A stretch of 64,000 bases of DNA. It comes from Neolecta irregularis DAH-3. Taxonomy: Eukaryota. The stretch covers positions 1 to 64,000 of the forward strand of contig LXFE01000211.1 of the NCBI GenBank assembly GCA_001929475.1. Reading direction: 5' to 3'. The notes beneath the pieces are model-generated. The model saw nothing but the letters and a program-made list of their open reading frames with translations. It did not search any database and had not been told where the DNA came from. How positions within the stretch are numbered: the first letter of the stretch is position 1; each line of letters opens with the position of its first letter. Positions 4,008 through 63,251 of the stretch are shown one piece after another. Made by a program: the position numbers and the translations under genes.

Positions 4008-6085
4008 TTATCCTTCGGCTTGTCCATCATTGCTTGCATTAGCTTTATGTTTGGGAATGAATGTGAATCCGTCAGGAGTCGGTCCAAGAAACATTTCACT
4101 GATTTTGACCCAATCAGCTGAATTTGTACTAGCTAGTAACTGTTCCATCTCATTTCGCGGACACCATCTCGAGACGCGGTCTTGTAGTCGAGGCGGTAGA
4201 ATTTCCAGTATTCCAACAGGAACGTATCGATGCAAGAAAGATTGAGCTTCGCAAATGAATCGACGAGTAGTGTTTAATCCATATTCGTCAGAGCCCCAAT
4301 ATTCAAGCCCATAGTTGCAGAACTTCTTCATCATTTCGAGACGTTCAGAAGATGTTTTATCTAGATGCTGTCGAGATTCAATCTCTTCGAAAATCCATCT
4401 GTCGTTAGTTTGGCTTGTCGCTAAATACTTGCGGTTTAATAAGAGCCCCTCTGGCAATCATTGTTGTATCTACTCCACAATGATCAATGGCATAATACCA
4501 GTCTTCATATGAATAGCAATCACCGTTTCCAATAAATGCCGTTCGTTGCCTTTGGCCAACTTCTTCTTCAATCCCTTTTTCCAGAAGATCATTTTCGATT
4601 TCCTGTTTAATATTTTTAACGATGGAAGCGCATTCAGAAATATAATTCCAATCAGCCGCTCGTGAATATCGTTGTTGCCTAGATCGTCCGTGCAGAGTGA
4701 TCGCACTGAGTTGGACATCTCTAACCAGTCTCGCGACGAGCTTGGATGCAGTTGGATGATTATCCTTTGTTCCCATTCGCAACTTTGCTGTGATAGGGGT
4801 TGTTCCCGAGACTACCGTCATTCCTCGAAGAAGCTTTATCAATCGTCCAGGAGCATCCAGAAGAGCAGATCCAGCACCAATTCGATAGATCAGATCAATC
4901 GGACACCCGCAATTGAGATCAATAAAGTCGATACTATCACAATAACTCGAAAGAATCTCCGTAGCTTTTGCCGCTTGCCATGGACGAGGTGCACTGATTT
5001 GTACACCAAAAAGACCCTGCCGTCCTGATCTTGAAGGTTCCCGTTCAGACGCATGTGCCCTTGGCAATGCCCATTCATTCATGTTTCCCTGTATAAGTGG
5101 CATCGAGACCCCCATTTCTGAAACAGTCACTTCGGCGCCAAAGTCTCGACATAACCGTCGAAACGGTATATTTCCAACCGTAGTCAACGGAGCAAGTAAT
5201 TTGGCACCGGACCAATCGATCTAAAATAAACACATAATTAAAAAACGACATCTACCTTACGTTTCTCGCCTGGTTTAATAACAGTGTCGACGTTCCCTGT
5301 TTTGTTATCTTCATTTCCTCCAGTCTCATCTACATTCATTTTATCATTCAGACTCTGAAGAAAACTTTTCGAAAGGGGAAGAGAAACTTGTTTTGTTCGA
5401 AGATCTTTCATAAAATCTTTCGAAACAGTATTAATCTCAGTCTTCGGATCTTTATCCTATTACCAATCAGTGATCCCTCGTCAAGATTATTAATAAATTA
5501 ATAATCTCTTTTTGCATACCATGGCAATGCCACGATGGCTTTTAAGCCATCTACATTTCCAACCACTTTTACAAAAACCAGTAGCTTGATAAACTGCACA
5601 TGTATCGCCAATATCAGGGGGTTTGCTGTCCAAATACTCTTGTAAATCGTGCGAAAATTTACATCTGATAAGGTAAACAGACCAAAGTGATATCTAGTAA
5701 TCGTACGTTTCTTGAAAGGGACATGGATTTCCAGTTCCATCGCTTCGGCTGACATGAGGGCATAATCTAATGGTCTCTTGAACTTTGTTCATATGTCGAG
5801 CCTTGTTCATGCCCCGTTTCCGTTTTGTTGAATTTTCAATTGTCGGAGGATTTGTGTCATCACCTCGAGAGTCCTTTTCTAGGTCAATTGAATTCTGAAC
5901 ATCGGTTTGTGATTCGAGAACGTCTTCACGCTTTGGTCCAATTTGTTCTGAGGGGGTTGTTGGAGTCGTCGCCAGAGTAAGGGCATATCTGTTATTAGAT
6001 GATATCCTTATATGTAGAGTGAGTACTCGGGCTTCACTGCGCAAAAACCTCGGGAGTCTCGCGGTTTGTTGAACGTTGCTGCCAT
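4008..6085 (-). CDS. DUS3: tRNA-dihydrouridine(47) synthase with CCCH zinc fingers, 6 exons
   Basis: First exon [25 protein letters not shown] region (LCPH..CPFQETCKFSHD); [58 protein letters not shown] and C-terminal FIPKHKANA. Confidence 0.93.
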
Positions 6086-6554
6086 TGGAAATGTTTTCGG
6101 TAGTGGTGAACCCGGTAAAAGTTCTCAACATGAACATTATACATAATTTTGGATTATCATTCTTTCGAATCAATGCACTAAGATAGGGCATCATACAAAC
6201 AACAGCAAGCCGTACAAATGAATGACAAAACTTTAGTGAAGGAATGTATGCGAAACTCAAAACACACCGTCTCCAAAAATTCCCGAGAGCATCCAGAGCA
6301 TCCAGAGCACAAAGAACAGCACCAACAAAAAAATGGAAAAGAAGGAAACGGAGCCGGAAAGAAAGGAAAAATAAAGAGGGGATGAAGACTCACCCGCCTT
6401 TTCCGCTTGCAAGCAATAAAGACTTCCCCAAGGAAACACAAAACTACAGCCATCCAACCGAATCCCAATATTAGAGAAAAAGAGAAACCCTCCAACAGAA
6501 CTACTATTTTATAATCCACCACTGCATCTTGCCGATTAGGGATACCGACTACGT

Positions 6555-8931
<2,377 letters not shown>

Positions 8932-10075: not shown

Positions 10076-12734
10076 ATGACTATAACTCAACCCGACGAAT
10101 CCCCTCCAGGACGTATTTTCAGCCATAATCTTGATTCGCCTTCACTGCCGAGTCAAAGAAACGAGGCAAGTATGAATCTAGACCACCCATTTTATGATTA
10201 CAACACTGAAAAGACGATGCATGAGGCATGGCGAACCTTGGCATATTTTTGGCTGATATTGCAGCTCGATTCAAAATATTGGGCACAGACACCAGGAGGA
10301 CGTCCTAGTGACTCTGCAGCTTTGCTGGGAAAGAGCACCGTTGACGCAGAACCCCAGATGCCCAATTTCAAAGATTTTAACCCTAATGTCTCGAATGCAC
10401 TTTATCATCGTAACTATCTATGCGACAATCGTAACTAATAACAGATGGTACTGTTATCACGGCAGAGCTAGAGGAAATATACACTAGTGTACAAAAATGT
10501 CTCGATTTGCGAAACAAATACATCCAAGTGTCACATCAACGACCTTTTGATAACCCAAAAGATGACATAGGGAACTGGAATATTTATCCGCCCCCTCCGG
10601 AACCCGCATGGAGACCCGATGGCAAGATTAAACATGAAAATTCATACAACTTGACAACAGAATTCAACATGGACGAGTGTGAAATTCCAGGAGAGTATGA
10701 GATGAAGGTTGTGCTTGAGAACGGAATCTACCAGGTTTATCTTGGTATGAAGCATACAAAAATCTAGCTAATATGCAGATGGCGAACCTATTGTTAAAGT
10801 TCCCACTATCAAGGAATATTATCTCGATCTCGATGAGATACAAGCTATCAGTTCTGATGGTCCAGCAAAAAGTTTTGCATTTCGACGATTGCAATACCTC
10901 GAGAGTCGTTGGAATTTATATATTTTGCTGAATGAATACCAAGAATTGGCTGATTCCAAGGTACTGTCTGTATTACGTTTTTTTAATATTTAGCGAGTAC
11001 CTCATCGTGATTTTTATAATGTTCGAAAGGTCGATACTCACGTCCATCATTCGGCATGCATGAACCAGAAACATCTCTTACGGTTCATTAAAAGTAAGCT
11101 GAAGAAACAGCCAGATGTATCTAAGTCAAACGTGGACATGACTGATGTTAGGAACTTGTCCTTCGAAGAGATGGGAAATATTTGACTCTGGCAGAGGTTT
11201 TCAAGTCTTTGAACTTGACAGCATATGATCTCAGCATTGATACCCTGGACATGCATGTGCGAACAATTATTAAACAATATCCTGACTTCGTAGGCTCATA
11301 AAGACTCGTTTCACCGCTTTGACAAGTTTAATCTCAAGTACAACCCTATTGGGGAATCCCGTCTTCGCACAATCTTTTTGAAGACTGATAATGATATTGA
11401 AGGAAGATATCTCGCAGAACTGACAAAAGGTGCAAGGTCTTCTTGGGACCATACTCATAGACAGAGGTCATCTCCGATGTGGAACAGAGCAAGTATCAAA
11501 TGGCGGAATACCGTATCTCAATCTACGGCCGTTCAAAGGGTGAATGGGACAAACTAGCCAGTTGGATCGTCGACAATAAGCTTTTCTCGCCAAATATACG
11601 ATGGCTCATTCAGATTCCTCGCTTATATAATCTGTATAAAGAGTCTGGCATTGTTGAAACGTTTGATGACATTATTAAGAGTAAGTCTCAGCTTATGGCT
11701 CACTCATAGTCTAACTGTCTAGATCTATTTCAACCTTTGTTCGAGGTCTCACAGGACCCATCGACGCACCCTAAACTCCATGTCTTTTTACAGCGAGTGA
11801 TCGGATTTGATTCCGTTGACGATGAATCAAAAGCCGAGAAACGACTATACAGAAAATTTCCAATTCCGAAAGAATGGAATACAACTCAGAACCCACCATA
11901 TTCCTACTGGATCTACTATTTGTTCGCAAATATGACCTCTTTGAATACTATTCGGAAGCAACGCGGATTCAATACATTTGTTCTGCGACCACATGCGGGG
12001 GAGGCTGGTGATACTGATCATTTGGCAGCAGCCTATCTAACATGTCATTCGATATCTCACGGCATCCTTCTTCGAAAAGTCCCATTTTTGCAATATTTGT
12101 TCTATCTGCAAGAAATTCCGATTGCAATGAGTCCGTTGAGCAATAACGCTCTCTTTCTTTCTTATGAACGAAATCCATTTCCAAGTTTCTTTAGAAGAGG
12201 ATTGAATGTTAGTCTTAGTACTGATGATCCGTTACAATTTGCATTCACCAAGGAACCTTTAATTGAGGAGTACAGCGTCGCTGCGCAGGTATTCATAACG
12301 TCGGGATATGTAGCTCACATTAGATTTACAAATTATCTGCTGTTGATATGTGTGAACTTGCCAAGAATTCGGTACTGCAATCGGGCTTCGAGGGTGCCAT
12401 GAAAGCTCGTTGGCTCGGCGATTCATTCGCCGAAAGAGGAGTGCGTGGCAACGATGTCCAAAAGACGAACATTCCCGACGTACGTATGAAATTCCGTTAT
12501 GATACATGGGTCGAAGAGATTGGAATGATTTTGAAATACGCTAATGGCGGCCGGAGCTTCGCGACTAGCATGGAAGCAAGCGTTATCGAGGATGCATCAG
12601 AAAGTCTCAGGGGATTGACTACCGCAATAGAGAATTGGAGCTTTCCTGGAATAAGCATTATTCACGAGCGTAGTTGCCGTCAACAAAAACTCACTGGCGA
12701 CAATGAGAGTGTTAGGTCGGGGCGAGAACCCTGA
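10076..12734 (+). CDS. AMD1: AMP deaminase, about 10 exons
   Basis: [73 protein letters not shown]. Confidence 0.96.
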
Positions 12735-17285: not shown

Positions 17286-18401
17286 ATGTTACACTCTCAG
17301 TCAGCTGGTGAGCGCCCACGAAGAAGCTCAGCCTCTACTCGAATTTGTACCATAATTGCGGGTGCCTTGGCAGGCTTGCTGCTCTTAAGTTTATTTGGGA
17401 CTAGCTTGGTCTCTCAGACTTACATGGAACACGTACGATGTGTGCTGAGTACTGTTTTAAATGGGAAGGCAATGAATAAAGAATACATTCCAGGAAATTC
17501 ATATGATGGGAACCAGTTATTCGTCGTCAAAGGCGGTCGAATCGCAGTCAAAGGCCAGTACGACATCACCAATAGACGAGGGATCCAAATCGAACACCGG
17601 GGAAATGTCAATGTCATTGAAGCAGATGTCGATAATGTAGAAGTTGAGTTCTCCATTTCGGTTAGCGAAGAGGATCTCAAGAAGCAGATTCACATCTCGG
17701 CAGAAAACGACAACGAATTGATTACCATAACCTTACCGGCATGAATCGAAAGCCTGCGCTCTGTACTGATGATATAGCAAGTCTGGAAAAAACATTGTAG
17801 CATCACGACTATAACTAGTATTCGCATTCCGAAAGGGAAGATTCTTGATGCGGTCGATATTGATTTACCTATCTTTGACATACTTTTCGACGATGTCAAC
17901 GCTGAAATCAAAGAGTTGGGAATCAGAGCTGCCGAAGGAGACGTGGCTTTTGATTCCAAAAACCTTGAGACTGACCATATCGGAATTGACGTGAATGTCG
18001 GTACTATCCGGGGTAATTATAAGACTTCGCGGCTTTCAGCATCCACGAGGGTTGGAGACATTGATCTGAATCTTGAAGTTTTCGGCAAGGATGCAGAGAT
18101 CAAGACCAGTGTTGCCACTGGAAGTTCTCATCTTCACGTCTCAAAATCTCATGACACGAGGAATATCAAGTCGAAGCATGTCGCCTACAATGGGTCTATC
18201 ACCTTATATTACCCTAAAACCTGGGAAGGCAAAGTTCGTGCACAAACAAATGTCGGACGAGTCAGTTTCAGTGATCAGATTCAAGTCACTAAACAAAAGA
18301 GCGATGTGGTAAAGGATGATAAAGAAGGTCTGAAGGGCAATGGACAAAGCTTATTGCATGTCCAAACAGACGTAGGCGAAATTGTAGTTGACCTGGAGTG
18401 A
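17286..18401 (+). CDS. Type II membrane protein with DUF4097/adhesin-like beta-repeat ectodomain, 2 exons
   Basis: N-terminal TM helix (ICTIIAGALAGLLLLSLFG), then repeated beta-strand units ending in G-x-I/V (TRVGDI, TNVGRV, TDVGEI); GC-AG intron 17739-17777. Confidence 0.7.
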
Positions 18402-18562: not shown

Positions 18563-20783
18563 ATGATCAATCGGATAACTACCCGCTCTTCTCTCCGGAG
18601 TAACTACCTCCTCAGGCGGGATATATCCGCACATTCGCCCAAGGCTGGAACTTTTTTGTATGTTTGAGGGAACATTACCTGTTGTTTATACATAGACCTC
18701 GGCCGAATCCGGCACCATCCTTCAATCCCAGACCGCTCACTGAGGAGCCAAAGGTGCCTCTATATCCGCTCAGAAAATTCCAGCAGCTTGAATTTGATGA
18801 TTCGTATGATTCAAGTGTGAATTACGTCTTATGCTAAGCTTCGTCGGATTATCAGGTGGCCAAATCTTCCACGAAATGATGCTTCGGCAAGGAGTCAAGC
18901 ATATCTGTATGTTGTCTGATGTCCCAATGCCTCCCTGAAGAGATAGTTGGCTATCCAGGTGGCGCTATTCTGCCCGTGTTCGATGCGATTTATAACTCGA
19001 AACATTTTGATTTTATTTTACCCCGCCATGAACAGGGCGCCGGCCATATGGCTGAAGGCTATGCTAGAGCTTCCGGAAAACCTGGTGTTGTACTTGTAAC
19101 TTCTGGACCGGGTGCTACCAATGTCGTTACTCCAATGCAAGACGCTCTCAGTGACGGGACCCCTATTGTCGTATTCTGTGGTCAAGTACCCACTAGCGCA
19201 ATCGGTACAGATGCCTTTCAAGAAGCTGATGTCATCGGCATCTCAAGAGCTTGTACCAAATGGAACGTCATGGTGAAAGATATCGCAGAGCTTCCTCGAC
19301 GAATCAATGAGGCTTTCGAGATTGCTACGTCTGGAAGACCTGGTCCAGTTTTGGTGGATCTACCAAAAGATATCACTGCTGGGATTCTTAGACACCCAAT
19401 TCCGACTCGTTCAGCTATCCCATCTTATCCAGGATCGATAGCTGCTCGAGTGCAACAAGCCTATCTTGCTATTCACTTGAGGAAAGTCGCAAAGCTAATT
19501 GAAATTTCCAAAAAACCGGTTATTTATGCTGGTCAGGGGATGCTCTCCCGTCCTGAAGGTCCTAAATTACTACATCAACTGTCCGAGCAGGCGCAAATTC
19601 CGGTCACAACGACTCTACAAGGGTTGGGGGCGTTCGATGAACTTGACGAGAAAAGTTTACATATGCTTGGAATGCACGGCTCAGCATATGCTAATCTGGC
19701 CATGCAAGAAGCTGATTTGATCCTTGCTCTTGGCGCACGGTTTGATGACCGAGTAACAGGAAACTTGACAAGTATGTTCACCGTCAGAAAATCAAGATTT
19801 TGATGTGCAGAATTTGCACCCCAAGCTCGTGCTGCTGCTCTTGAGAATCGTGGTGGAATCGTGCATTTTGAGATCATGCCGAAAAACATCAATAAAGTGG
19901 TCGAAGCTACCGAAGCAATCGAAGGAGATGTTATTGAAAATCTCTCTTTTCTTCTTCCACTGGTTAAGCAAATACCCGAGAGAAAAGCTTGGTTCGATCA
20001 AATTAGAGCCTGGAAAAAAGAATTCCCATTTACTTACGATCCGGCAACCGATGTGCAAAGGATAAAGCCTCAAAGCGTCATCGAAGAGCTTTCCAGACAA
20101 ACAGAGAATATCAAAGAAAATGTTTTAATAACTACTGGAGTCGGACAACATCAGTACCTTGCATGGCTAGAAATGAGTTAATTTTATAGAATGTGGGCCG
20201 CTCAGCACTACCGATGGCGATATCCACGCACGATGATAACCAGTGGCGGGTTAGGAACCATGGGGTATGGCCTTCCGTCGGCTATTGGCGCAAAAGTCGC
20301 TCGCCCTGACGCCATTGTTGTGGACATTGATGGAGATGCAAGTTTTAGTATGACTGCTATGGAACTTGTACGTCTATTTCATTAATACTTACTGATCAGT
20401 CAGCAAACAGCCTCTCAGTTCAACATCAAAGTAAAAGTTCTTGTCTTGAATAATGAGTTTCAGGGCATGGTGCAACAGTGGCAAGATCTCTTTTATGAAC
20501 AAAGATACAGTCATACGCGACAAGTCAATCCTGATTTTATCAAATTAGCCGAAAGCATGGGTGTCAAAGGTATCCGTCTTGAAAGACCGGAAGACTTGGA
20601 AAGTAAGATGAAAGAGTTCCTCGAATATAATGATGGTCCAATCCTCATGGAAGCGGTCGTCCATCGCGGAGAGCATGTATATCCCATGGTTCCAGCGGGC
20701 AGAGCTCTTCATGAATTTGTTGTTCACGGCATGCCTATGACTTGAATGCTTTCTAACTGTAAGGAAGTCTAAAACAAAAGTGA
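18563..20783 (+). CDS. ILV2: Acetolactate synthase catalytic subunit, mitochondrial precursor, about 8 exons
   Basis: [70 protein letters not shown]. Confidence 0.97.
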
Positions 20784-23088: not shown

Positions 23089-24177
23089 ATGTCATCAAAC
23101 ATGTCAGCCTCTGATGTCCGTCTTTACTTTGGACCAAACCTCCCACGAGATAGTAACTGGGACTATCTTGCCAGTGGGCTGATATCGTCTAGCCGAACGA
23201 ACCGATGTTGAGCGCCTTTTCAAGGGATACGGCGATGTTCGAGAAGTTAAGCTCATGTCTGGCTATGGTTTTGTCGAATTCTCTGATCCGCGAGATGCAA
23301 AGGATGCCGTAAATGGTTTGTCTCCTTGCACACATTCCTTCTGAAATCTTTTAGATTTCAGTATGGCTTTGGATAGCACCGACGCACTAATGTCTCTAGG
23401 AGATGGAAAGGAATTTCGAGGTGAGAGGTTAGTGTTTCACTTTCTTGCTCCCAGTTGACTTTTGCAGAATAAACGTTGAATTTGCTCGAGCTTCTCGACG
23501 ACGAGAATATGACGAGCGAGGCCCGCCTAGAGAACGCGAGAGTCGATTTCCCAGGCCCCGGCGAACTGGGAATCGTGTCCTTATAGAAGGGCTATCTCCA
23601 GAAACAAGCTGGCAGGCAAGTTTCAGGGTGGGTCTTTTATCTAACAAGCTAGGACTTGAAGGACTTCATGCGTGAGGCAGGCGAAGTTACCTTCTCTGAT
23701 GTCCCTCGTGATCGTGATGGGCGAGGGTAATTTAGATTTGCCTGTCTACAACTCTACTAACTTTCTTCAGTGTTGTTGAGTATGATACTGCTGATGATAT
23801 GAAGAAGGCTATTGAAACTCTCCACGGAAAGGAGTGCAAGGGCATTGTCATTAGTGTCAAGGAAGATCCGGTATGTGACATTCTATATCAAGGTCTCGTA
23901 TCTAACATAATTCTAGAATCCGCTGGATGACCCGCCGTTTAGCTCTAGAGTTCAACGAGAGGACCGATTTGGCGGCGGCCGAGGAGGTTATTCTCGAGAC
24001 CGCTCTCCTCGACGCGACTATGGCCGGCGAGACTATGACCGAGGAAGCTATCGACGAGAAGAGCATTCTTCTCGACGGGACGATTCGTATTCTGCTCGCC
24101 GAGATGAGTACCCTCCTTCCCGAAGAGACGATGGATACTCTGACGACAGAGGTCGACGAGAGGATTACCGAAGCTAA
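23089..24177 (+). CDS. srp2: SR-family pre-mRNA splicing factor (RRM + pseudo-RRM + RS/RD tail), 8 exons
   Basis: RRM1 with GYGFVEF; pseudo-RRM with SWQDLKD across a GC-AG intron; Arg/Asp/Ser-rich tail; includes a 6-nt micro-exon. Confidence 0.88.
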
Positions 24178-25366: not shown

Positions 25367-27069
25367 ATGACATCAGATCTTCAGGTAATATATAATACGG
25401 AAACGGGATCGGCTCCGCACTATCGTACATATCAGAAACGATGGATCGGGCTAGTCGTTATCTCATTGCTGAATGTGATTGCATCATGGGGGTATGCTTA
25501 TTTTCCCCGACCAAGACATTCTACTGATTGCAAGCTGGGTTACATATGCACCCATATCTTCGAAAGTTGTCGAATACTTTGATTTTTCATCGAGCACGCC
25601 GGTAAATTGGTTGTCGACTGTTGTATTGTTTTCATTCAGTGTTTCTACACCTGTTGCGATCTTGATTTTTGATAAATTCGGAGTAAAAATTGGGGCATTT
25701 GTCTCTGTCAAATGATGATAACCAATAGCTAATTGTTGGTGCAGCGTGTCTTTTATTCGGGAACTGGATAAGATATATTGGTGTGGAAACTTAGAATTTA
25801 ACATAGCACTAAGCTTTTAGGCATTAGACTCACAGAAGGGCAGTATGGACTTTCTCTTCTTGGACAGGCAACTCTCTTCCAATGGCACTTGATTAAAAAT
25901 GAAAGATCTTTATTGGATTTGGGCAAGCGTTCTGTCTCATTATCCCTCCGCACTATTCCGACATCTGGTTCGCTGCCGGTTTTCGTGTCATCAGTACCGG
26001 TGTTATGACTCTATCAAATATCATTGGCATCGCCATCGTAAGGATCCTTTAAGTAGCTAAAACTTTACCGATAGTGTCAACTTATCAACCCCGCCCTCAC
26101 CACAGAGGCTTCCAGAGTTCCTGACATGGTACCTCTGTAGCGCTGTCCTTTTTGCTGATCCCCACAGATTCTATATATTGCGATTATTTCCACACCAGTG
26201 TGCATCTCAGCGTTGGCTATCGCATCGAAACCGCCCACACCGCCTAGTCCGTCTGGAGAAACGGAGAAATTTCCATTATGCGAAGGACTTCTTAGTCTTC
26301 TCAAGAATCTGGACTTTCTCTGCATATTTATTAGCTTTGCTATTTTTGTCGGATTTTTTAATGCTTTCACTTCACTTATTGAACAGGTCTCGCTATTTGT
26401 GTAAAGTTGTCTAATGATCAGATCATGGCTCCATACGGATGGTCCGATAGTCAGGCAGGAATCGCTGGTGCAACTCTCACCGTCGTAGGCCTATTGAGGT
26501 TTCCAAGAATTTACCAAATCACTGACGTACAGCGCTATTCTTTTCTCATTTTTTCTTGACAAATCACAACGATATTTACAAAGTATACGAACAATAGTAC
26601 CAGTTGTTTCCCTCAGTTTTTTATCGTTTATTTTCGTCATTCACTTCAATTCTTCTTTTGCGGTTGTTGCTGTTATGTGTGGTGTATTAGGAGCCAGCGC
26701 ATTCTCCCTGTTGCCACTTGCTCTTGAAGTTAAATGCCTTTAAAGATTTCATTGCTCAAGTCATAGTTGGCTGTTGAATGTACCCACCCGGTATCGCCGC
26801 AACTCTCCACAGGTATTTTATGGATCAGTGGACAAGTAAGTCGTTAGTTTGCCACCGTTATTGATGTTCAGTTATTTGGAGCAATCTTTCTGGTCACCAT
26901 GAATGCATTGAGATATCCTTCAAATGAAGGCGATCCGAAGGGTAATTATCTAAGAGCTTTGATCTTCCAAGGTACGTTATCGATGGCTGCCGTTCCCCTT
27001 AGTTGGGTTATTGGCCGGTTTGGCCAGCGTGTGAACCGGAGATTGGTTATAGATAAAACCAATGCCTAG
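25367..27069 (+). CDS. MFS transporter, FLVCR/SLC49-like, about 11 exons (start may lie further upstream)
   Basis: YRTYQKRWIGL, VNWLS, GNWIRY, LGQIFIGFGQ, WF...R, KPPTPPSPS, LELAVECTHPV motifs and multiple TM segments. Confidence 0.85.
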
Positions 27070-27222
27070 TCAGGATTATACCGGAGTCTTTTGAACCACA
27101 ACTCCCATATGTACTTTTAGGCGTACCATTCGCCTATAGCCGCGTAATCGGTTGGCTTTTAAACATGTTTATACTGAATGATTATACTCGGTCCGCCGAC
27201 TTGACGGTAGAGAATTTTCAAA

Positions 27223-40754: not shown

Positions 40755-42988
40755 ATGGAAATTGCTAGCAGTTTAGTGAGAGCTGCTGAAGATGCCGTTG
40801 CAGAGAGAAAGATGAAGGTAAAGAATAAATTGGAATCGACAATGCTAACCAGGAAGACGGCTTTTATGCTGTTGAATAATGCAGCCGTAACACTACTCCA
40901 GGCAATGCAAGATTATGAATTCCAGGGAGAGAGTAGCTTCTGAACAGAAAACCGGGCTGAATTGCAGGATATTTGGCTGTTCATTCTTTTGCAAATGTTG
41001 CGAAACTCATTCCGCATCTTGCAAGTGTGGTTTCAACAATGGCAACCATAACAGAACGCTTGCAACCTCGTTCTTCGTCCCTTAGGGATCAACCAAAGCG
41101 ACCCTCCTCACCTACGTCGTCGATAAACGAGAATATTCCTAGCATACCTACCCCCTTGATCTTGCAGTCTTATTTATCAGCGTGTAATGAATTAGTTGCC
41201 ACGAACTCAAAATTGAAATCCCTTACTCCAAATGTTTCATTACAATCGCATAGAAGGTTGATTGAATTACGAGCATTATATCAGCTACAAATTGATCAAA
41301 TTGAGGGGAAAATGAAATCAGGGAGTGAATTATCCATAGCTCGGATCCGGTCTCCTGGCGATATCGCCAAAGTTATCGTTTCTATCTCTGCACGTCTACA
41401 ATCGGATGATTCTAAATCGAAGAAAGGTTGGTTGGAATATCTAGAGAACCTTACCGCGCACCTCATCGTCAAAAGCGCGAATGAATCAACTGAAGCCGGT
41501 GCCGAAGCTTTGCAAAAACTGATTTCAACAGCCGAGCTTCTGTTAACGAAATACAAAGATTATGAAGCAGGCGACAGCGTGTTGCGAGGAATTGAGCATT
41601 CATCTGTCACTCGATTAGTGTCGATGTGGGGTTCGGCCAGCCCATCAATCCTCAAAACGCGTACTACATTACGCTCAATTGTTCCTCCAAAAAAGCCAAA
41701 AAAACTCGCTGAAGTACAAGCAGATGAGCAAATTGAATGTTGGCTACTAAATCAAGCCTATGTTCAAAATAAGCATTTGTTGAGACAGAGTTATCTTGCA
41801 GAAGCAAAAAGACCAGAAGAGGTAGATCCTCAAGATCGAGCAAATAGAGCCCAAGCTCTTGTTGCGTCACTTACTATGGAAGCAAATATACCTTCGCCTC
41901 CAAGAACTCCTCTTCCTCCCGGCGGGTTGCAATCTTTGATCAATGCCCTGTTGACAAAACAACCGATGAGGTCCTCGTCAACGGTAGTTGCATCCCATTC
42001 ATCGGACGTCTGGTCACCGAGCAGTGGACCTTTGGCTAGTCATTCGAAGCCAACGTTATCTACTTCTCTTACCTCCGTGTCTCGAGACCAAAGTCCATTT
42101 TCTCATCCATCGCAGAATGGGACCCATCTTCAAAGAGAGATAGATGCAGATTTGATGTCTCTTACGGATAGCGTCGAACATACGCCTCCATCTAGTCATG
42201 ATTCGTTCGAATGGGCATCTGACGGAGAAGGCGACGAGTTGCGCGAATTAACGAGACAAACTGTTCAGAAAGTCATGGACGAAATGAAAAGGACGAAGGA
42301 AGATGTCTCGAGAAGAACTTCAACTGCACTTCAGGAGGCTCAGAGAGCACTTAACGAAACAAAGGATGCCGTCGAACCACTTGAAAGGGGACAAGTGGAG
42401 GATCCTTGTGGAACTTCAATCCCTTCTGAAGCACCCGATGAAGACGCAACGGAAATGGCCAAGATGAGCGAAATGAAAAAGACTGTGCTGTCGTTGGCGG
42501 ATGCTGCAACCAATCTAAATTCAGACTCAATTGAAGTCGTTGAACAAATTGGAGGCATTGAAGTACCGTCTGATTTTCCGCATGCCAAAGCCGAAGAACA
42601 ACACCCAGGTTCCTTTGAAACTATGAACCAGTGTTCTTCTCAATCGCAACCCTGTCTTCAAGGTACAGCGTCTCACAAACGTCCCGACTCACGAGGTTCC
42701 GTCGTTTCGCAAGCTCCATCCAACGAAAGTCATCGTGCGACTTTGGGTAGTTTAAACTTCCTGGACCAACGACAACTTCTCAATCGTTCATCAAGATCTC
42801 TTGCTCGGGATGACACTCTGCATACTCGACGATCTAGCCTTTCGACAGAAAATCATGATCTGCTGCTGTCCCAGGAGTTTCAATCTAGGAAGGAGTTCCC
42901 GCTGAATAAGTCGCAAAGACAACAGGCTCGACGGGTGAAGAACGGTGGGGCCCATTGGAGAGGCGGAAAAACTGGCGGTGGTATATAG
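40755..42988 (+). CDS. Hypothetical protein (about 720 aa): helical N-half with possible degenerate RasGEF-like segment, disordered C-half
   Basis: 671-codon exon plus short upstream exons (GT-AG intron 40933-40967 restores frame). Confidence 0.75.
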
Positions 42989-43119
42989 TGTTGCGAGGGT
43001 TTTGGCAACTCTAATGAATCGAATGAAAAAGTAGAAATATTTATTCTTAAGCAATTCAGAACTACATAGCTAATAACAGCAAATAACTTGGATATTCATC
43101 AGCGAACTCTGGGAATTTA

Positions 43120-45905
43120 TCAGTTAAAAGATTCGACTGTAGGAGAACACTCGATCCTCAATCGAAAAGAATGATACCCCATTCACACCCAAATCGTCTT
43201 GCAGTAACATTTCCGTGAGTATCTTCTCCCGACCAGGAGTATCCTGTCTTTTCCCACTGCACGATTAGCAATGAATATGAAACAAAGGGATACCAAGCTA
43301 CTACAAATAGAGCTCTAAGTGATCCATTATCAGAATAACCAGCAAGGATACTCATTGGCTCTCTTCCCTTCAAGCAAATTTTTCCTCTCCATTTTGCATG
43401 TAGGAGACCTGTCAGGTTCAAGGGACTTATATTTCCCGGGACATCCTCATCATAGTGAATAGCATCGACATATGACTTGCTTACTACAGGAGCACTGTCG
43501 ATTTCTGTCTCGAGGTTATGTGTAGCGAATCCCAGGGGACATTTCTCGAGCCGAGAAGGTTGAAAATCTTCATTGTTAGTTAGTGGAGAGTGTCCTAGTG
43601 CCCTTGTGGCGCTTCGTCGGCGATTCTTGTGGGGAGATGTATCTTCCTTTGAAGGAGAAATGCCATCTTCTTGGGTGATTTTTCTGCGCTTTTGTCTGTT
43701 TTGATGGGATTTCTGTTCACTTTCTGATCCAGCAGCGACATTCTGGATCAGATTTTGTGTGGACTGAAAATGGGATTGGTTTAGGGTTGTTTGAGGGACT
43801 CGTAAGCCTATTTGACGATGGTCGGTCGACTGTTGGACTTGAGTAGGTCCCTCTGTTCTTAGTGCTTGATCTGGGGAATCATGTCTTGGATTGGCTTGAA
43901 TTTCTGTTTTTGTAGTTACTGGACGATTGTCTGGCCTGTCTGAAAGCAGAAAAAAAGAGTTTATCGGTTTGGATACCACAAGAATTTGATTCCTTTGCCG
44001 GTGTCTCGAAGATTGCGGAGACGCTTGCCTCGGCTCATGCGATAACGGAGCGTTCGGATCTGGATATACAAAGGAAGCTGAAATTACTTCTGCCTCTCGC
44101 AGAGGAACTGAATGTTGTGGATTACGATTCTGCACATTATTCAATTTGGCCAATGTCCATGGATTGCTTAGCGAAGCACTGATTTCTTCATCTAAAAATC
44201 AAGATAGGTTTACGCGGGAGTGTTACCCTCTATTACATCTTCCTCTATCTCGATATGACCAATTATTGAATCTTCACTCTCTTCATCTGAATCGCTAGAG
44301 TTTTCCCCTTCAGCCATCGAAAATCTCCATGGGGTCTCAATAGGCTTTTTCGCGGGGCTACTTTTCGATGGCGTCGTTGCGCTTGTTAAAGCATGATATG
44401 CATTAAAGCTCTGGCGACGGTCGCTCTGGGGAGCTGTGCTTTCTGGATGAGGTGGCAGGGATTCTCTATGCAACGATGGATCAAAGATATTCAATGGGGA
44501 AGACGATGAACTTCTCCCGACAGAACATTGGATTCCTCGAGGGATTTTATTGTCATTTAATTCGAGTGAATAAGTAGAGTCGGGATTTATGTCTAACTGG
44601 CTTTCATCCTTCTTTCGGTTTAGATAGTTGTCGAACTCAGTACCCTGAGGGGTCTCTGCAGGGAGACTTTGCCTCGACTTTTGCCTAGGTGATATAACCG
44701 GGACCCTCTCTAAGACTCCGTAGACTGAAGCTAATAAATCTTCAAGCTTTGCAACAACTGTATCGAAATCGCGAAAAAGTACAGCATCTTTTGATGGTTC
44801 TAAGTTAGGATCATAAACTCCCTTGAGACAAACGATATTCAAGTAGTAGAAAGGGTCTGATAATTTTGTCGACTCACCGAGCGAATTCAAAATGTACTGC
44901 TTGACGAGTTTTGTGATTATTTTCAAATTGCCTCGCAAGCAGGTAGTTGGTCGATTATCAATGTATATAAAGTAACCTTTGCCATTTAGGAGGTGCACGT
45001 CTATCCTTAGTAAACTTGTGCCACCAGTGTATACTTTTTGATGGATCTGGCAAAAATGCTTCGATTCGTAAATCATTTGACAAGGCATCCTCGGACAGCT
45101 TGCTTTCGACCCATAGACAACTATTCGAAATCTCTTTTCCCAAAGTTTGGGAGATGGTGTCGGTTACTTGCTTCGTAGGCGCAACAACAGTATCGCGTAA
45201 TTTGCTTCCTCCCTTCACTTGCGACGAAAAACGTATTGACGGATTTACAATTGCATAGGTCGTTATGAGGTGTTTGATTTGAGCCGGAAGCTTTGTGGCT
45301 TGTTTCCTCGCGTTCTAGATCATTTGTATGCTGAGTCTGTTACTCCAGGTTACCTCTCGTCGAACTGGAAACAATGTAAAAATCTTCTTGATCGTGACCG
45401 TGGTCCCTCGAGCAGGAGATACATTCTTTTGACTACAAGTTATAGCTGAACGGATGATCAATGCATACGATATAATTTCTCCTTCTCTAGAGAAATAGTA
45501 AATAGTCCCAACTTTATCAGCATCAGTCTTTGTTGTTATGGACATTTCTCCCGCTATTGCAGCAATACTTGCCAGCGCTTCTCCCCTGAATCCGTATGTA
45601 CGAACCGACGGCAAGTCTTCGAAGCTCTCAAGTTTGCTAGTATAATATCTTTTTGCCATTGATCTTCGATCATCCACTGGTATCCCACGTCCATTATCTT
45701 TGACCGTGATTCCGTCCATTCCATTGTATTCTAAACTGATTGTTATGAAAGTGGAAGCCGCATCGACTGCGTTTCTAATCACGTAAGGCTTGTAATGCAC
45801 GGTAATTTACTCCACCAGTTCCTTCACGATATCTATTAGGCTTGTGATAACCTGTCCAGAGGAGATTGCTCTGACGCTTGCATCGTCAAGTTTTGTGATA
45901 GTCAT
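43120..45905 (-). CDS. MutL-family mismatch repair protein (Mlh2/hPMS1-like), about 7 exons; stop at 43120 or 43158 depending on last donor
   Basis: ISSGQVI..VKELVENAVDA, DNGRGI, TSKL, YGFRGEALAS, GTTV, LFPVR, YDPNLEPSKDAVLF, NPWTLAK. Confidence 0.88.
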
Positions 45906-46300: not shown

Positions 46301-48864
46301 TCAATACACTTCCAAGACGTATCTTGAATCATCCTTCAGTTGTTCAATTATTTTCTTCGTATTGGGCACCTTCTCCGCTTTCATGGATTTCGAGTGCATA
46401 ATAACCGCGTCCTCGAGGACTTGGGTGACATCAGGTACAGGCCAAATGGGCCCACAGAGGTAGAAAGAGCCATTTTCGACAATGAATGCATCGACTATTT
46501 CAGGAAGAGTGTTACGCATGATGTCTTGTATATAAACTTTATGAGGTTGATCCCGACTGAAAGCTTTTCCGAGTAGAGTGATGATTCCCGCATTTTCATA
46601 GGCTTCGAATTCATCTCCATATCTATACGGTAAGCGAAGCAAACGCATTCTCGTCTCATACAAATATTCCTCTCTTTGATGTCGAGAACCGAGATATAAG
46701 AAAACCTTCCCAATTGCGATTCCTTGTTGCTTCTGCCATGCACGATGTTCAACGAAAGCTCTAAACGGTGCAAGACCAGTCCCGAGACCAGCCATCAAAA
46801 TAGGCTAATAATTAACCAACTTATTAAGTCTTGATTTGCCTGAGTGTGCAGTTCCGGTAACTTCATGACAGAGGGTTTAATACTGACAGTCACTCTCGAT
46901 CCAACCTGCAAGTTTGAGAGATATCTCGTACAATGACCAAAGCGGGTTCGCTCCCAAGGATCCTGCCAGTTGACCACGACAACTAATAAATGAACACTGG
47001 TAGGATGAACTTTCTGTGACGAAGCAATTGAATACTCTCTCCGCTTCAAAGGCGAAATCATCTTGATCAATTCCTGGAAGGGAGGCCGAGCTGATTCGAA
47101 TTCCCGAAGGATATCAACATACGTAACCATCTCGACATCCGAGCGATGTTTAAATAAAACGGCACCTTCTGCGCTCGCTAATATTGATAACTTGCGCTTT
47201 TCAGCCTCATCCGTTGCGTAATCAGCCAATTCTCTATAAAATCGTTTCAGAGGTTTTCCGAACAAGTCAATATTCTGCATCGCAACCTGAAGGGTTGTTC
47301 TTGATTCGAAAACTTCTGTATCATCGCGAGATGGGAGTTCGATTATTTCATTTCCTTTTAGTCCGTAGAATTCAAGAAAGTCACAAGCTTCAGTAGGATC
47401 GTTCTGTCCATGTATTCCAAGGGCTTCCCCAATTTCATAATTCATGCTAGTTCCCGAGATATCAAATTCGATATGAAAGATGTTCCGATCATACGATTTG
47501 GGTGTCAGTCGTTTATTTTCTTGAACTCGAACTACATAGGTGTGTTCCGCAAGATCAGGCCTAAGTTTTAGCTGATAATTGAATGCCTCCTTGAAGCATA
47601 ATGCTTGTGCAGCTGAGTTCCATGAGGACATAGTCGTCACAGGTTCTAGAGGTTCATACCCCATATTCGATAGCGACGTCCCCGGATCAATATCAGTGGG
47701 GAGCGTAGAGACAGAAGACGAAGTTGATACGTCCTCACTAGCAACCGAAGAAGTGAAACACCAGTGGACATCTCCAACTGTGCGGGAAGGAGAATGATCT
47801 TCCTCAACAATTTGACTGAGTTGAGAAACAGTCCACTTCATACAAGGCAAGTACTTGAAATCTCGAGCTCTTGGCAATGGGGAGAATCGATTAGAATCAT
47901 AGATGGCCGCGATTATGTCCTGATATAAAATAGAATGAAAGTAGTTATCAGAAACTTCTCCGGCCTTTGAAACTTGCCCGAGAACGTCGATTCTTTTCGC
48001 TGTAGATGGAATTGCTGTTAATAATTCATCTTCATAAAATGGCCGAAATACTCGGACATTAATGAGACCAACCGAATCGCTAGAATCAATGTATTCCCTT
48101 GCAACTCGATACTCTACCGATCCAAATACGACGAGAACTTTTGATACCAGAGGCGAGCCGTAATATTCAAAAGGTGCATAGTTCGTTCCAAATGCAAGGT
48201 TAACTTTATGTAGGATCACCTTGGAGGGTTCTTCAGGTGATTTGAATGAATTTGTGCGTAAATCTTCAAGGATTGATTTGTACGCAGTATATACAGACCC
48301 ACTGTCGAGGTAAATCCTTGTTTCCTTCGCCAGAATAAGTCCATCGTAGACATGGGCTGTGGGCCGGTACAAAGCTGATAACGTTGCAAAAATCGACATA
48401 TGCTGAACTTCTTCCGCAAACCGCGAAGTGACCAATCCAAGATTATTCTCCCTAGCAAATTCTAACGCTGGAATGTAGTTTATTTGTGGGTTCATCTCTA
48501 GGTCGAAATCGATCGCAGCTACGTTGAAAACCAACGGGCTTGTCATACCAGCAAGATTCTTAGAGAGAGTGGATCTCATGTAGTCCAATGACTGAACAGT
48601 TGAAATGATTGCTCTAGGTTGGCGGCAGCTTCCTGGAGTCTGACTGAATTCTCCAAGGATGATTGACGCAGCGCCTGCTCGACTTTGAAGACAAAATATT
48701 CGGCTCGAAAGTTCGGGTTGATCTCTAGATAGCTGGGCTAAATGGCGACCGATATATGGAATCGTGTCAGCATAGGAATAGACCGAATAGGAGAGAACAA
48801 ATGCGATTTGCTCAATTAAATCCTGGACAGTATATTCTGACAATTCTGATAGAGTGGAAGACAT
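46301..48864 (-). CDS. MET10: Sulfite reductase (NADPH) flavoprotein alpha subunit, 3 exons
   Basis: ENKRLTPKSYDRNIFHIEFD, KRREYSIASSQKVHP, MAGLGTGLAPFRAF, AFSRDQ, FYLCGP, terminal RYVLEVY. Confidence 0.95.
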
Positions 48865-49077: not shown

Positions 49078-51131
49078 TCAATTTAATGTATGTTCATCAA
49101 GGACTGTGTCAATTAAGAGATCCCCGGAGACATCCAAAAACTTTCTTGTCCTCAACTCTGTTGGAAGATACTGTTCTTGATTAGTTTGCCGCTTATAAGA
49201 CAGGACTCAGGATACCTCCTGTTTGACTTTCCCGTTCAAGTAGTCAGGGTTATATTTGTACCCTTCTGAATAACCTAAACTTTTCATCAATTTTGTTGGC
49301 GCATTCCTGAGATGCCTAAACGATCAGATAATAGACAAAATTATGTGTACATTGGTATGGGAGCGCTTGCAGCGTCTGGCTCGTTACGTAGTGCTGATTG
49401 AGCTCTTCGGTAAGCCATATATGTTCGCGTAGATTTCGGTGCCTCGGCGAGATACACCGCACAATGAGCTACACAGGATTAACAAGTTGATCATGTAGAA
49501 AATATTCGACAACCTAAAATGATTTCTGCCTCGGGCATGCCAATTTGTGTTACAGCGGTATGTGCAGCAACAGCCAATGGGAGAGCATTGTTATCAGCCT
49601 GAGATCAGCCCTTCGGTGTACAAGTATCTTGCCATCCCGACATCTTCACTCGCAATCACTACCTTGGAAATCAACCTGGATTTATAGAAATATTGTGTAC
49701 CATCCTTCGTGCAACAAAAAGCGCATCACCACTTTCCAACATACGGGCCAGATAATATAACGCAGCATTGGCATCACTTCCCCTCACGCTATGCTCAGTA
49801 TTGGGAGAAACGAACTCATACGATTTGTGGAAAGCGCTGATTGTATCATAGTGCATATCTCCTGCTCTATCGTATACAAAATGAGTTCTTTTAAGAGCGT
49901 TCTTGAGTTCATTGGGCGTAATTCTGTTATTAGGATTAGATAGTGCACTTAATCCTGTCTCGAGTAAAGTAAGCCCGATCCGCCCTTCATAAGATTAGAC
50001 CACGATGGCGAGGATATATACCGTCTCCATCGGCAAATTCGGCTATGTGCTGAATCATTGCCTCATCGAGCCCAGATGGTCTCTCACTATTGGGAAAATA
50101 TATCGAGAGGGCTCGATCAAGGATTAGGATGATGTTGCTTGTGGATAGTTTCTTCAAGAAAAAGACTCGACATCTCGAAATTAATGCATTGTTCACTTTA
50201 AAGCTTGGGTTTCTATGGTCATAAACACCTATCCTTTCACATGGTAAATACTCAGTGGTTGCCCCTATTCTTCGAAAGTTAGCGTTGCCACAACACCAGC
50301 ATGTACAGAGTAATTATTCCTCGTTCAACGTACGGCACTAGTTTTTCATCGATATTGTATCTATAGGGGACTGCTCACGGAAGACATCTTGCTGAGCCTA
50401 AGCAATGAGCTACCACTTGAAATAATCAGAAGTGTACTTTATTAAATCTGTGAATCTCGTCCATAAAAATAACCGTTCTTTTACCGGTCAATTGCAACAA
50501 GTTCTTTGCATCTTCAAAAGCTTTCTTGCAATCATTCACACCATGGGTTGTAGCAGAGAGCTCTTTAAATTGCGCGCTTGTATTCTGAGCCACAATCTTT
50601 TGTGAGCATATACAAGGATGTTTTTCGGAAATACTCTAGCCAAGGTGGTCTTCCCACATCCTGAAGGGCCCCAGAGAATCATTGAAGGACATTGATCTGA
50701 CTCAATCAAATGTCTCAGAATTCCTTGTGGACCAACCAGCTCTTCCTGTCCAAAGTACTGGTCAAGTCTCGAAGGTCTTATTTTCTCAGGTAAGGGTTTT
50801 GCTTCTTCCAAAGCATCGATGCTCTTAAATTTCTTTACAGCCGACTCGTAATTACCTTGGATCTCATGCAACGGTGTAGAGGTAGACTGGAGGTTTCTGA
50901 CAGGCTGAGCTAGTCGTTTCTTAGAGGATACTGGCAGGAAAAATTCGGAAGTCTGTTGGCGTCATCTCTCTATTGAAGCAAGATCCTTACCTTTTGATTG
51001 CTTTCCTGAGAAGAGTGATGTGACGACTCTTCCCCTGATATGAAAGCATCTTTGCAATTATTGTCCAGGTGACGGTTTATAGAACTCTGTGGCACAAAAT
51101 TCTCACACACAGGGCAAACAACGGAACTCAT
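49078..51131 (-). CDS. MGS1: Mgs1/WRNIP1 DNA-dependent AAA+ ATPase with N-terminal UBZ finger, about 14 exons
   Basis: VCPVC...[79 protein letters not shown]. Confidence 0.94.
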
Positions 51132-51844: not shown

Positions 51845-53308
<1,464 letters not shown>

Positions 53309-59946: not shown

Positions 59947-61892
59947 TGGACCAAGAGCTGGTGAGGATGTTAATAGGTTGAACAAGGATTCATGCAATAG
60001 AAACCGGAAATAACTGCAGAGTTCGAAACTGCAATAAGAATCAGACAGAATTAGGAAACAGGGGAAGTAGATCGTAATTGATGGAAATGAGCACGATTTG
60101 ATGATACCAAACTCCATACCACGCGATTCCCGAGACGAGGTCAAGTTCAACGATGCAATTCGCTCGCCCCATTAGATAGAAGGAATAAGAAAATCGTGCT
60201 AGATAAGGCTAAACTTAAAGCTCACGAGGGATGTCCAGTGTGGCCACCCGCCTGCCCGTCGGCGACCTTCCGACCACACTGGGGATGTCTCACAAAGTCG
60301 TTATTGAAGGCCGAATCTAAAGTCTTAGAACGATTCTCAGATGTAGTCGTAATGCAGCATCTTATGAAACAGCGACATTGTAGATATTAGTTATGATTTG
60401 CAGTCCATATCACTGTATGCAAGGTCATAGTCAACTTTTTCCTCGGAGTAATGAAATTATGCAATCATAACAAGAGCAATTTCCTCAGTTCTCTCGTGTA
60501 ACATTTCCTTTTGTGGAAAATTACGTAGGTGGATATTTGAGGCTATTTGTGCCCACAAGTTGTCTAATCCCATGACTATCTCGTCTATATAGCCCTCAAA
60601 CTTAGATTGTCCCTCATTATTTTCCCTTTTGAACGGCTATGATTTACGGATCAGACAAGAGAATCCAGAAATCCTACTCATCGACGAAACAAACAAGACA
60701 AAAAACAAATCACAAGACCGATGAAATGTCTCATTGTAGCCCAATTATGCCAAACAGAAGATTAATAGGGGGCAGGTTTTTGAGCAGAAACCTCAATCAC
60801 TCAGTTTGTCAAAATGTCCTACAGGATATCTCGAATAAGATATAACGATCTGCTAGATGGGCCATATGGGTCATATGGATTGTTAGCGTATTGTAAAATC
60901 ATGTTTGATTAGTGTCAAAAATCAGCCAATAGAAATTCCGACAATTATATGTTGCATTTGAAATTGTCTACTAAATATCCTACCTAATTGACGCACGAGG
61001 TGACAGAATGATTACAAATTTGCAAATATGTTTTTCTTACAATGGTTTTCCATACTATATATTCTACTTTGAACTGCCTATCCAATTTAGTGTGTTATAA
61101 TAGCTCCCTTTACCAGCAGATAAGAGAATAGGGTGAGCGTGTTTTCAATGTGTAGGAAGAAATCTAATTAAATGATATCAGTCATTGATAAAACTATTGA
61201 ATCCACATCATTCATTAAGAATACAATTAACCTCAGAATCGGCTTCGAGTCTACTTGTGTCATAATTTTCACTGAATCATGATAAATTGCGCTGATAATA
61301 TTTCAGAGTGATCTATGAACCACCAATCATGTAGAAGGATCAATGTTACAGAGGAGAGGTGACTATGTGGCAGTGAGTCGTCACTTACAAGATGACGGCC
61401 ACCGTCCACATGATGCTAATTATATACAAGCGCCTAGTGCTTGGGCTATGCATCCCTCTTCCACCGGGATATGATTGTACCTCTCCTTCACACTATCCAG
61501 ACCTGCTCCAGGAGGGAGTCTCCGTTACAATCAATGCCTATAAATAAAAGTCAAATGAGACTAGTAGAACGACAAAGATGTCAAATGTGGATGTGCGATC
61601 GGTACTATCCGGTTCTTGGAGTGATGATGTACAGGTTTTGTGTCCCTCCATCACCTGATGACCATTGTACATATTAAGATTGAGAAAAGATATGAGGCAC
61701 ACTGGTGAGTGAATCGTCAGTTGTGTGGTGTTGGGAGGATTACGTGAAGCGAAAATGTGAATGCAACTGTGATTAACGTCTTCTATACAAGCAGTATGGA
61801 ATGAAAAAACGTACAATTGATGCCGAAAATGCTTGTCGTGCCACAATCAGTAGCAGCACAGAATATAGAAAGTCTGAATTATTGAGATATCA

Positions 61893-63251
61893 TTATTCCT
61901 TCAAATCAGCGTTCGCTAATGTCGTTCTTTTTGGTCCCATAGGAATTGCCTTGCGGATATTTGATCGGAGATCCAGAGCAGCATTGGCATTCGAGACCTA
62001 TAAATGATTAAACAAACGTCACAGAATGACAAGTCTTGCCTTGATTGCAAGATGGACCGGTTTACCCTCTTCAAGAACAACAAGACGAGTGAATTTATCC
62101 CCTAGGTCATTCGCACCAGAAAGTTTATTGTTATCATCAAGCGTCATACCCGCAAAGAGCGGTGTATTCAGAATGACACGAAAGACGGCATCTGTTCTCA
62201 TTACTAATAGCGTTAGTCGCGCTATCAAGTCCGGGGGTATGCCTAGACGTGAAGAAATAATCTCTTTTGTTTTAGGGTTTTCATGAATATTGATTTTGAG
62301 ACTCCCTAAACCGCGTTCCTTCCAGTTTTTGGTGTCATCGAGAATAAATAACTTTGCACGAACGCTAAACAGCGTTGTTTCGTCTTCTTCACCTGTTCGA
62401 ACTTGAAATTAGCCGGGACAGGTTTGTGAATGGATTACCTTTCTGTTCCTCGAGTGGCTTCGTTACCTGCATATATTGATCTGCGCTATTTGTCCGTGTA
62501 TCGTTTTCATTCTTCTGTAGTAACATATCACCAAATTGATCTTTACGTTCTTCATTCCCCTCATCATCTTCGATAGATTGATCTTCGTTCTCGGCATCTT
62601 TGTCGTCGCAAGTTGGTGAAGTTTCCCCCTCCTTCCGTCTCTTTTTCTGCGGGGACTTGAACTTGCGAAAGTTGGGCATATCTGTGCTTTTAAAGGCTCC
62701 AAACCCGCCAGAAGAGTTGGTGAAGGCATCTTTTTTCACTTCTTCATCCTTTTTTATGGCTGCAAAAGGGGAGGCTCCCATTGGTCTCGATACCGCACTG
62801 AAGGGTGAGACCCCCAATCCAGAGGTACGGAATGGCGAGGGACTTGATGTGACAGCAGGAACCACAGTCTAAATCACCAGATCAGAGAACTCTGTATAGA
62901 AAAGACGCATACAGGCTTCATATGCTGTTCTGGTTCTGGGGTTTCTTCTTTGGTATCATTTTGATCATCGGCTTCGTGTGAATATTCATTGTCATTCTTC
63001 TCTGTTGACTCGTCTTCTTCGCGAGATCTTTTCGCGGGTATTTTGACTTCATCCAGGTCCTCTGGCTTCTGGCCGTCTAAATTTGTCTCTCTCAGCTTCT
63101 GCTGCATTTTTCTTTCTTCACAGTCGGCATCGGGTAGATCTGTTTCTGTCTTTGCTTTTTCGACGCCTATAGTTTTGGAGCTTGTCACTGCAGGTGCAGA
63201 TTTCACAGTCCGTTCGAGCTGTGAGGACGGTTGTTCTGTATCTGAGGGCAT
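61893..63251 (-). CDS. YRB2: RanBD-domain nuclear transport factor (Yrb2/Hba1/RanBP3-like), 5 exons
   Basis: SPF/FG-like motifs, VRTGEEDETTLFSVRAKLF, WKERGLGSLKIN, SRLVMRTDAVFRVILN. Confidence 0.82.

Follow-up and report, generated by a model that had tools for sequence, protein, structure and literature searches.

Nearly all fungal introns begin with GT and end with AG, and a stretch of DNA in which many introns appear to begin with GC raises the question of whether these introns are real and, if so, how their 5′ splice sites would be read. Here we address this question for a 64-kb stretch of a single contig (LXFE01000211.1, positions 1 to 64,000; hereafter "the window") from Neolecta irregularis DAH-3, and all counts given below refer to this window. 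N. irregularis is an early-diverging ascomycete of the Taphrinomycotina, and three long exons of the window give translations that are 100%, 100%, and 99% identical to deposited proteins of this strain. A first-pass annotation of the DNA had proposed 15 GC-AG introns. Our analysis points to genuine U2-type GC-AG introns that make up about 7 to 10% of the introns in the window, compared to about 1% elsewhere in fungi. A C at position +2 would be passively tolerated, given a minimal G-Y-A donor signal (where Y is a pyrimidine) and ultra-short introns. We assign this reading a probability of roughly 0.8.

Junctions placed by protein homology

All 15 proposed intervals have GC as their first and AG as their last dinucleotide on the strands and at the coordinates assigned to them, are 34 to 44 nucleotides (nt) long, and reproduce the junction peptides previously given for them when their flanks are translated. 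A scan for the motif G/GCA...YTRAY...YAG (here and below, a slash marks a splice junction) returned 18 candidates in the window, only 8 of which are among those proposed, and its rate per occurrence was about that of control dinucleotides. Because such a purely motif-based scan is not discriminating, we relied on homology for each junction. An intron was considered verified if excising the exact interval gave a protein that is collinear with solved structures, Pfam profiles, or fungal homologs, with zero residues gained or lost.

By this measure, 11 of the 15 introns are verified: those of DUS3, a kinase gene (at 8009), an SR-protein gene, TMLD, MSP1, MET10, and MGS1, together with two each in an MFS transporter gene and YRB2. 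Another two sites are probable, whereas the proposed introns in AMD1 (at 10226) and ILV2 (at 20729) are not forced by the evidence. The verified introns are 34 to 42 nt long, like the GT introns that surround them. At all 11 sites, every frame-keeping GT-AG alternative would add or delete residues, as would retention, which leads to a frameshift or an in-frame stop at 8 of them. Judged from conserved protein sequence, these 11 intervals are real GC-AG introns.

Solved structures place some of these junctions to the residue. In the SNF1/MARK-like kinase gene, the intron at 8009 to 8044 (minus strand, 36 nt, phase 0, ctg/GCAAGA...TCTAG) separates exons that abut on Snf1 chain 3mn3_A to the last and first residue (131 to 193 upstream, 194 to 242 downstream) and likewise on AMPK chain 4red_A (142 to 204 and 205 to 255), and its read-through runs into an in-frame TAG. 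The SR-protein intron at 23616 to 23652 (plus strand, 37 nt, phase 0, SWQ/DLKD, cag/GCAAGT...CTAACAAGCTAG) lies between an exon that matches residues 8 to 30 of SRSF1 chain 2m8d_B, ending in SWQ, and one that matches residues 31 to 53, beginning with DLKD. The same abutment recurs in 2o3d_A, 3beg_B, and 7abg_A6, and no GT-AG alternative is present at this site. For the MSP1 intron at 37963 to 37998 (plus strand, 36 nt, phase 1, atg/GCACGT), splicing yields FN-D-IGGLDD, which equals FNDIGGLDD of the Msp1 chain, whereas the stop-free read-through would carry an insert of exactly 12 residues relative to Msp1 chains 6pe0/6pdw.

Other junctions can be placed by profile coordinates. The exons of the TMLD/TauD-family gene that flank the intron at 36120 to 36157 (minus strand, 38 nt, phase 1, tga/GCATGT...CTAATCTCCATAG) match positions 105 to 238 and 243 to 267 of the TauD profile, and three leftover residues plus the split codon equal the four profile positions between 238 and 243. 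In MGS1, the GC-AG intron at 49599 to 49632 (minus strand, 34 nt, phase 0, atg/GCAAGA...CTGATCTCAG) borders a 30-nt microexon at 49633 to 49662 (minus strand), which the gene model and profile arithmetic place between a 38-nt GT intron and this 34-nt GC intron. A 94-residue exon ends with positions 1 to 28 of the MgsA_C profile, the downstream exon begins with positions 39 to 67, and the 10 residues of the microexon are exactly positions 29 to 38. A 43-nt GT alternative would cost 3 of these 10 residues. When single exons were searched against Pfam, they often gave no match, as for the downstream exons of DUS3 and the kinase gene and for the SR and MFS exons.

The remaining verified junctions are placed by fungal homologs. 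Spliced DUS3 is collinear with six fungal DUS3 proteins across the junction of its intron at 4399 to 4432 (minus strand, 34 nt, phase 2, acc/GCAAGT...CTAACGACAG). All 80 metagenomic fungal DUS3 loci that were compared encode the junction motif without interruption, and none of them has an intron at the KP/W position (75 assessed by pattern and 5 by tblastn). On this sampling, the DUS3 intron would be either lineage-specific or lost in all 80 of the compared loci. Removal of the MET10 intron at 46805 to 46839 (minus strand, 35 nt, phase 0, cag/GCAAAT) gives a protein that is collinear with those of Savitreella, Saitoella, and Tuber.

The MFS transporter gene carries verified GC-AG introns at 25695 to 25728 (plus strand, 34 nt, phase 0, ggg/GCATTT) and at 25868 to 25905 (plus strand, 38 nt, phase 0, cag/GCAACT). 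Across the former junction, the spliced model is gap-free relative to P0287, P0289, and P0265; across the latter, GLSLLGQ/IFIGFGQAF is gap-free relative to GLTMFGQILIGFAQPF and similar sequences. Overall, the alignment to P0287 has zero gaps over 221 residues, with both junctions included. YRB2 also has two such introns, at 61998 to 62039 (minus strand, 42 nt, phase 0, aag/GCAAGA) and at 62204 to 62242 (minus strand, 39 nt, phase 1, tag/GCATAC...GACTAACGCTATTAG). At the former, HLAIK/VSNANAA aligns without gaps to HFAIKLSNSNAA of P0254, and at the latter, SSRL-V-MRTD aligns without gaps to SPRLVMRSD (P0254) and ARLVMRAE (P0253). Furthermore, the spliced segments SSRLVMRTD and HLAIKVSNANAA are gap-free relative to a Diversispora RanBD protein, the first of them also relative to a Tulasnella protein. 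As a comparison of length only, the aligned span in the read-through of 62204 to 62242 exceeds that in RanBP3 chains 2y8f_A and 2crf_A by 13 residues.

Share of GC-AG introns and their donor signals

Introns throughout the window were predicted using a self-trained gene finder that combines a three-periodic Markov coding model with explicit intron candidates, which are scored by donor and acceptor matrices, branch motif, and length. It predicts 120 to 127 introns depending on the model setting. When retrained with both GT and GC donors, it gave 24 genes and 125 introns (111 GT and 14 GC), and 13 of the 14 GC introns are sites proposed earlier. The displayed gene models have 2 to 13 introns each, and the 111 predicted GT introns have a median length of 38 nt (interquartile range, 36 to 41). 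This denominator is approximate, in that a strand conflict removed one gene and the finder did not recover the TMLD GC intron at GC penalties of -2 nats and stricter. The conflict concerns converging genes at 40755 to 42988 (plus strand) and 43062 to 45905 (minus strand), where the finder extended one gene into the overlap and dropped a 733-residue plus-strand gene. As a consequence, the intron total is slightly too low.

For an unbiased test of donor identity, the finder was trained on GT-AG introns only and was then offered all 16 dinucleotides at equal penalty. At penalties of -2, -3, and -4 nats, GC was picked for 9 of 98, 5 of 94, and 5 of 92 introns, respectively, and every other non-GT dinucleotide was picked at most twice, with none picked at -4 nats. 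Nine of the 15 proposed introns were recovered in this blind manner at their exact coordinates. In controls that admitted one dinucleotide at a time, GT plus GC gave 14 non-GT introns, compared to 1 to 8 (mean, 5) for GT plus each of 14 other dinucleotides. The lenient setting is noisy, yet GC stands out. With a rising penalty on GC donors, 13 GC introns were left at -3 nats, 11 at -4 and -5, 7 at -6, and 3 at -8, where the MFS intron at 25868 to 25905 was still retained. A simple count of intervals that bridge open reading frames was uninformative, with 340 to 700 matches for every dinucleotide.

The share of GC-AG introns had been put at 15 of roughly 150, or about 10%. The excess over the usual 1% stands, but a firm 10% does not: with either the predicted intron totals or the earlier total of roughly 150 as the denominator, the share lies between 7.3% (the 11 verified introns of 150; 95% interval, 3.7 to 12.7%) and 10.4% (13 of 125, with the probable sites included). 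According to part of one survey, 98.7% of fungal introns are GT-AG, i.e., about 1.3% are not (PMC7072748). Measured against this baseline, the excess in the window has a binomial P of ≤5 × 10⁻⁶. The G+C content is 0.411 to 0.473 in every 4-kb bin, and because the window is only 41 to 47% G+C, base composition does not account for the excess. As the first-pass annotation had held, C at +2 is tolerated in the window far above the norm of about 1%, at sites where conserved proteins need splicing.

The same annotation had called the GC donors weak, with only two that read GCAAGT and with nothing in common beyond A at +3. The count of two among the 15 donors is correct. However, the donors share more than the A at +3, which is present in 15 of 15 GC donors and 86 of 111 GT donors. 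G at -1 occurs in 13 of 15 (59 of 111 for GT), and G at +5 in 10 of 15 (41 of 111). The GC donors are indeed weak in absolute terms, but they are not a weak class here, since the GT donors are weaker still. The latter are degenerate, with little conserved past GTA, and even their commonest hexamers, GTATGT and GTATGC, occur only five times each.

To score donors, we counted matches to CAG/G.AAGT over the seven flanking positions, using the 111 predicted introns as the GT set. The 15 proposed GC donors average 4.27 matches of 7, compared to 3.03 for GT donors (Mann-Whitney p = 6 × 10⁻⁴). For the 11 verified sites the mean is 4.55 (p = 6.5 × 10⁻⁴, or 0.0016 when set against a stricter GT subset). 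A YTRAY branch motif lies 6 to 13 nt from the 3′ end in 12 of 15 GC introns and in 71 of 111 GT introns. Compensation by the flanks is the usual rule for GC-AG introns, and this rule holds here, on a very low baseline.

Remaining candidates and deposited protein models

Two further sites probably are real GC-AG introns, on ab initio grounds. The intron at 8791 to 8834 in the kinase gene (minus strand, 44 nt, phase 1, tcg/GCACAT...CTGACTCTCGCCAG) lies between the unconserved N-terminus, for which there is no covering homolog, and the start of the kinase domain. Its read-through is a frameshift, the one short GT-AG alternative measures 95 nt, and the finder retained the site with GC penalties as strict as -6 nats. 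The other intron, at 17739 to 17777 in a DUF4097-like gene (plus strand, 39 nt, phase 0, ccg/GCATGA...CTGATGATATAG), has an in-frame TGA as the second codon of its read-through, and splicing it joins open reading frames of 179 and 207 codons, the downstream one of which has a weak match to DUF4097 (E = 0.0011). All GT alternatives at this site are at least 117 nt long, and the GC site was retained at -8 nats.

The candidate at 10226 to 10264 in the N-terminal region of AMD1 (plus strand, 39 nt) is in frame and stop-free and is thus not forced. The finder retained it to -5 nats. It lies in the unconserved N-terminus, upstream of the part covered by TIGR01429, and a Protein Data Bank search with this region gave chance matches only. 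The ILV2 candidate at 20729 to 20763 (plus strand, 35 nt), located at the extreme 3′ end of the gene, is not supported and was never chosen by the finder. Read-through gives the five-residue tail GMPMT and splicing the six-residue tail GSLKQK, each followed by a stop, and the TPP_enzyme_C match stops 25 residues short of the site. These AMD1 and ILV2 candidates have intron-like motifs only, and because such motifs have a high chance background, they do not rescue either site. A 16th candidate, at 10622 to 10660 in AMD1 (plus strand, in frame), was picked only at -2 nats or milder and is probably coding, as its read-through has 92 residues against 89 TIGR01429 positions, compared to 79 for the spliced form.

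At four of four comparable GC sites, which fall in three proteins, the deposited Neolecta models are in error. The MET10 model (P0001) is missing 22 conserved residues at 46805 to 46839. In the DUS3 model (P0121), which uses a GT alternative located 41 nt upstream of the GC donor at 4399 to 4432, 10 out-of-frame residues stand in place of 14 residues of the spliced model. The YRB2 model (P0241) keeps 13 intron-encoded residues at 62204 to 62242 and, through a 33-nt GT alternative at 61998 to 62039, inserts ARL. These errors fit a predictor that bars GC donors, which may also explain why the abundance of GC-AG introns is absent from print.

A search of the literature on GC-AG introns in fungi and Taphrinomycotina and on Neolecta introns found no report of such an abundance in Neolecta, with supplementary tables, which may hold per-species counts, outside its scope. 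In the main text of the Neolecta genome paper (PMC5309816), the strings "intron," "splic," and "GC-AG" do not appear. Neolecta is mentioned once each in PMC8476143 and PMC10878826, which never mention GC-AG, and has 0 occurrences in PMC7072748. Should the window be representative, much of the public proteome of this species would hold local errors of this kind. Such errors would carry over into studies of intron evolution that rely on the annotation, as might be the case for PMC8476143, whose methods list the Neolecta genome.

Several other features of the window were observed. The MET10 homolog (46301 to 48864, minus strand) lacks about 200 mid-protein residues that are present in other fungi, a gap also found in the deposited model. 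MET10 proteins of other fungi match PF01558 and PF17147, which are missing from the match list of the Neolecta protein. Overlapping long open reading frames at 27057 to 27485 (plus strand) and 27169 to 27624 (minus strand) encode low-complexity products rich in Pro, Arg, and His, and the 24- to 28-kb bin that holds them has the strongest AT skew of the window (-0.125). Scans of the window gave 0 Rfam matches, with no small nuclear RNA genes, and 0 tRNAs.

Explanations for the excess and comparison with known systems

An ordinary spliceosome accepts GC donors when their flanks compensate, and the reading that we favor would need no special machinery, with splicing carried out by the major spliceosome. 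The 5′ splice site would be read from as little as G-Y-A together with the final base of the exon, inside an intron constrained to a length of about 38 nt. Because the donor signal in such introns would be so small, the U at +2 would add little to recognition, and T-to-C transitions at this position would be only mildly harmful and could persist. They would do so mainly at donors whose neighboring positions (-1, +3, and +5) pair well with U1 and U6.

Some points weigh against this account. The GT set was predicted by our own finder and surely includes some false introns that dilute its consensus, and for the 11 verified sites no single flank position is individually significant (p of about 0.1). 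For four of the 15 sites there is no support from homology, and elsewhere we infer excision of the GC intervals from protein conservation. We also infer that tolerance at +2 is linked to the ultra-short length of the introns. Moreover, a single 64-kb window was sampled, and the genome-wide share could be nearer 4%.

A lineage-specific change in the 5′ end of U1, the ACAGAGA box of U6, U1C, Luc7, or Prp8 might instead have lowered discrimination between U and C at +2. GC-AG introns at five to eight times the fungal norm despite an ordinary G+C content would accord with such a change, and the degenerate GT donors would fit a general shift in how 5′ splice sites are read. Nevertheless, the compensation seen at -1, +3, and +5 is what unchanged U1 and U6 would impose, and we regard altered machinery as possible but unlikely. 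We are similarly doubtful of a joint reading in which GC-AG introns would make up at least 5% of introns genome-wide, with G-Y-A reading of the 5′ splice site and a change in U1, U6, or Prp8 that evolved along with intron shrinkage to about 38 nt. If true, Neolecta would be a relative of fission yeast with naturally relaxed U/C discrimination at +2, independent of base composition.

The remaining alternatives question the observation itself. The window could be an outlier in a genome where the share is near the usual 1 to 2%, given that only 64 kb was sampled and that the sites fall in 12 of roughly 24 to 30 genes. This seems improbable, as at least 11 GC-AG introns in 125 to 150 have a P of ≤5 × 10⁻⁶ at a rate of 1.3%, and the sites are scattered from 4.4 to 62 kb over both strands and over genes unrelated to one another. 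It is even less probable that boundaries were misplaced, with real donors at nearby GT sites or with the intervals retained as coding sequence. Frame-keeping GT-AG alternatives are present near most proposed sites, the deposited annotation uses GT alternatives or retains the interval, and the intervals at 10226, 37963, and 62204 are in frame and stop-free, with the ILV2 site likewise not forced. However, the GC model is exact at the 11 verified sites, where a GT alternative or retention adds or deletes residues, and homology refutes misplacement there; the SR site at 23616 has no GT alternative of any kind. Finally, conversion of GT into GC by sequencing or assembly error or by strain polymorphism strains belief, because it needs at least 11 independent T-to-C changes, each exactly at an intron +2 position and favoring the better-flanked donors.

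The introns in the window share a GC start, an AG end, a branch motif, and flanks nearer to consensus than those of GT introns with the ordinary U2-type GC-AG introns of fungi, animals, and plants. They differ from them in that they are not rare (7 to 10% rather than about 1%), in that their donor consensus is weak in absolute terms (2 of 15 with GCAAGT), and in that they are just 34 to 44 nt long. U12-type introns likewise allow a first dinucleotide other than GT. Their 5′ motif is (A/G)TATCCTT, and inspection of the donor hexamers found a TATCCTT-like motif in 0 of 15.

Departures from the norm of about 1% are known at the species level. Part of one survey (PMC7072748) describes frequent GA-AG introns in Oikopleura dioica and Eurytemora affinis and gives 6.67% major non-canonical introns for Meyerozyma guilliermondii, a percentage stated there without an intron number. 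The dinucleotide in O. dioica and E. affinis is GA, whereas in the Neolecta window only GC among the non-GT dinucleotides exceeds the control level. Higher GC-AG shares are given for algae in the corresponding parts of two reports: 56% of 241 junctions in Emiliania huxleyi, with a genomic G+C content of 65% (PMC4028052), and 14 to 17% in pelagophytes (bioRxiv 10.1101/2024.10.30.620910). As far as those parts go, both papers ascribe the excess to very high genomic G+C content. The Neolecta window resembles these algae in that GC donors are common and in that ab initio models are wrong since predictors prefer GT. In contrast, it comes from a fungus, has ultra-short introns, and is 41 to 47% G+C, with no 4-kb bin above 0.473, which sets it apart from an excess driven by a G+C content of about 65%. 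Although GC-AG introns are known as a minor class, it is unusual that they reach about 7 to 10% in a fungus of ordinary G+C content whose introns are ultra-short and whose GT donors carry almost no signal. Such a combination would allow the role of position +2 in 5′ splice-site choice to be studied in a natural system that is related to the fission-yeast model.

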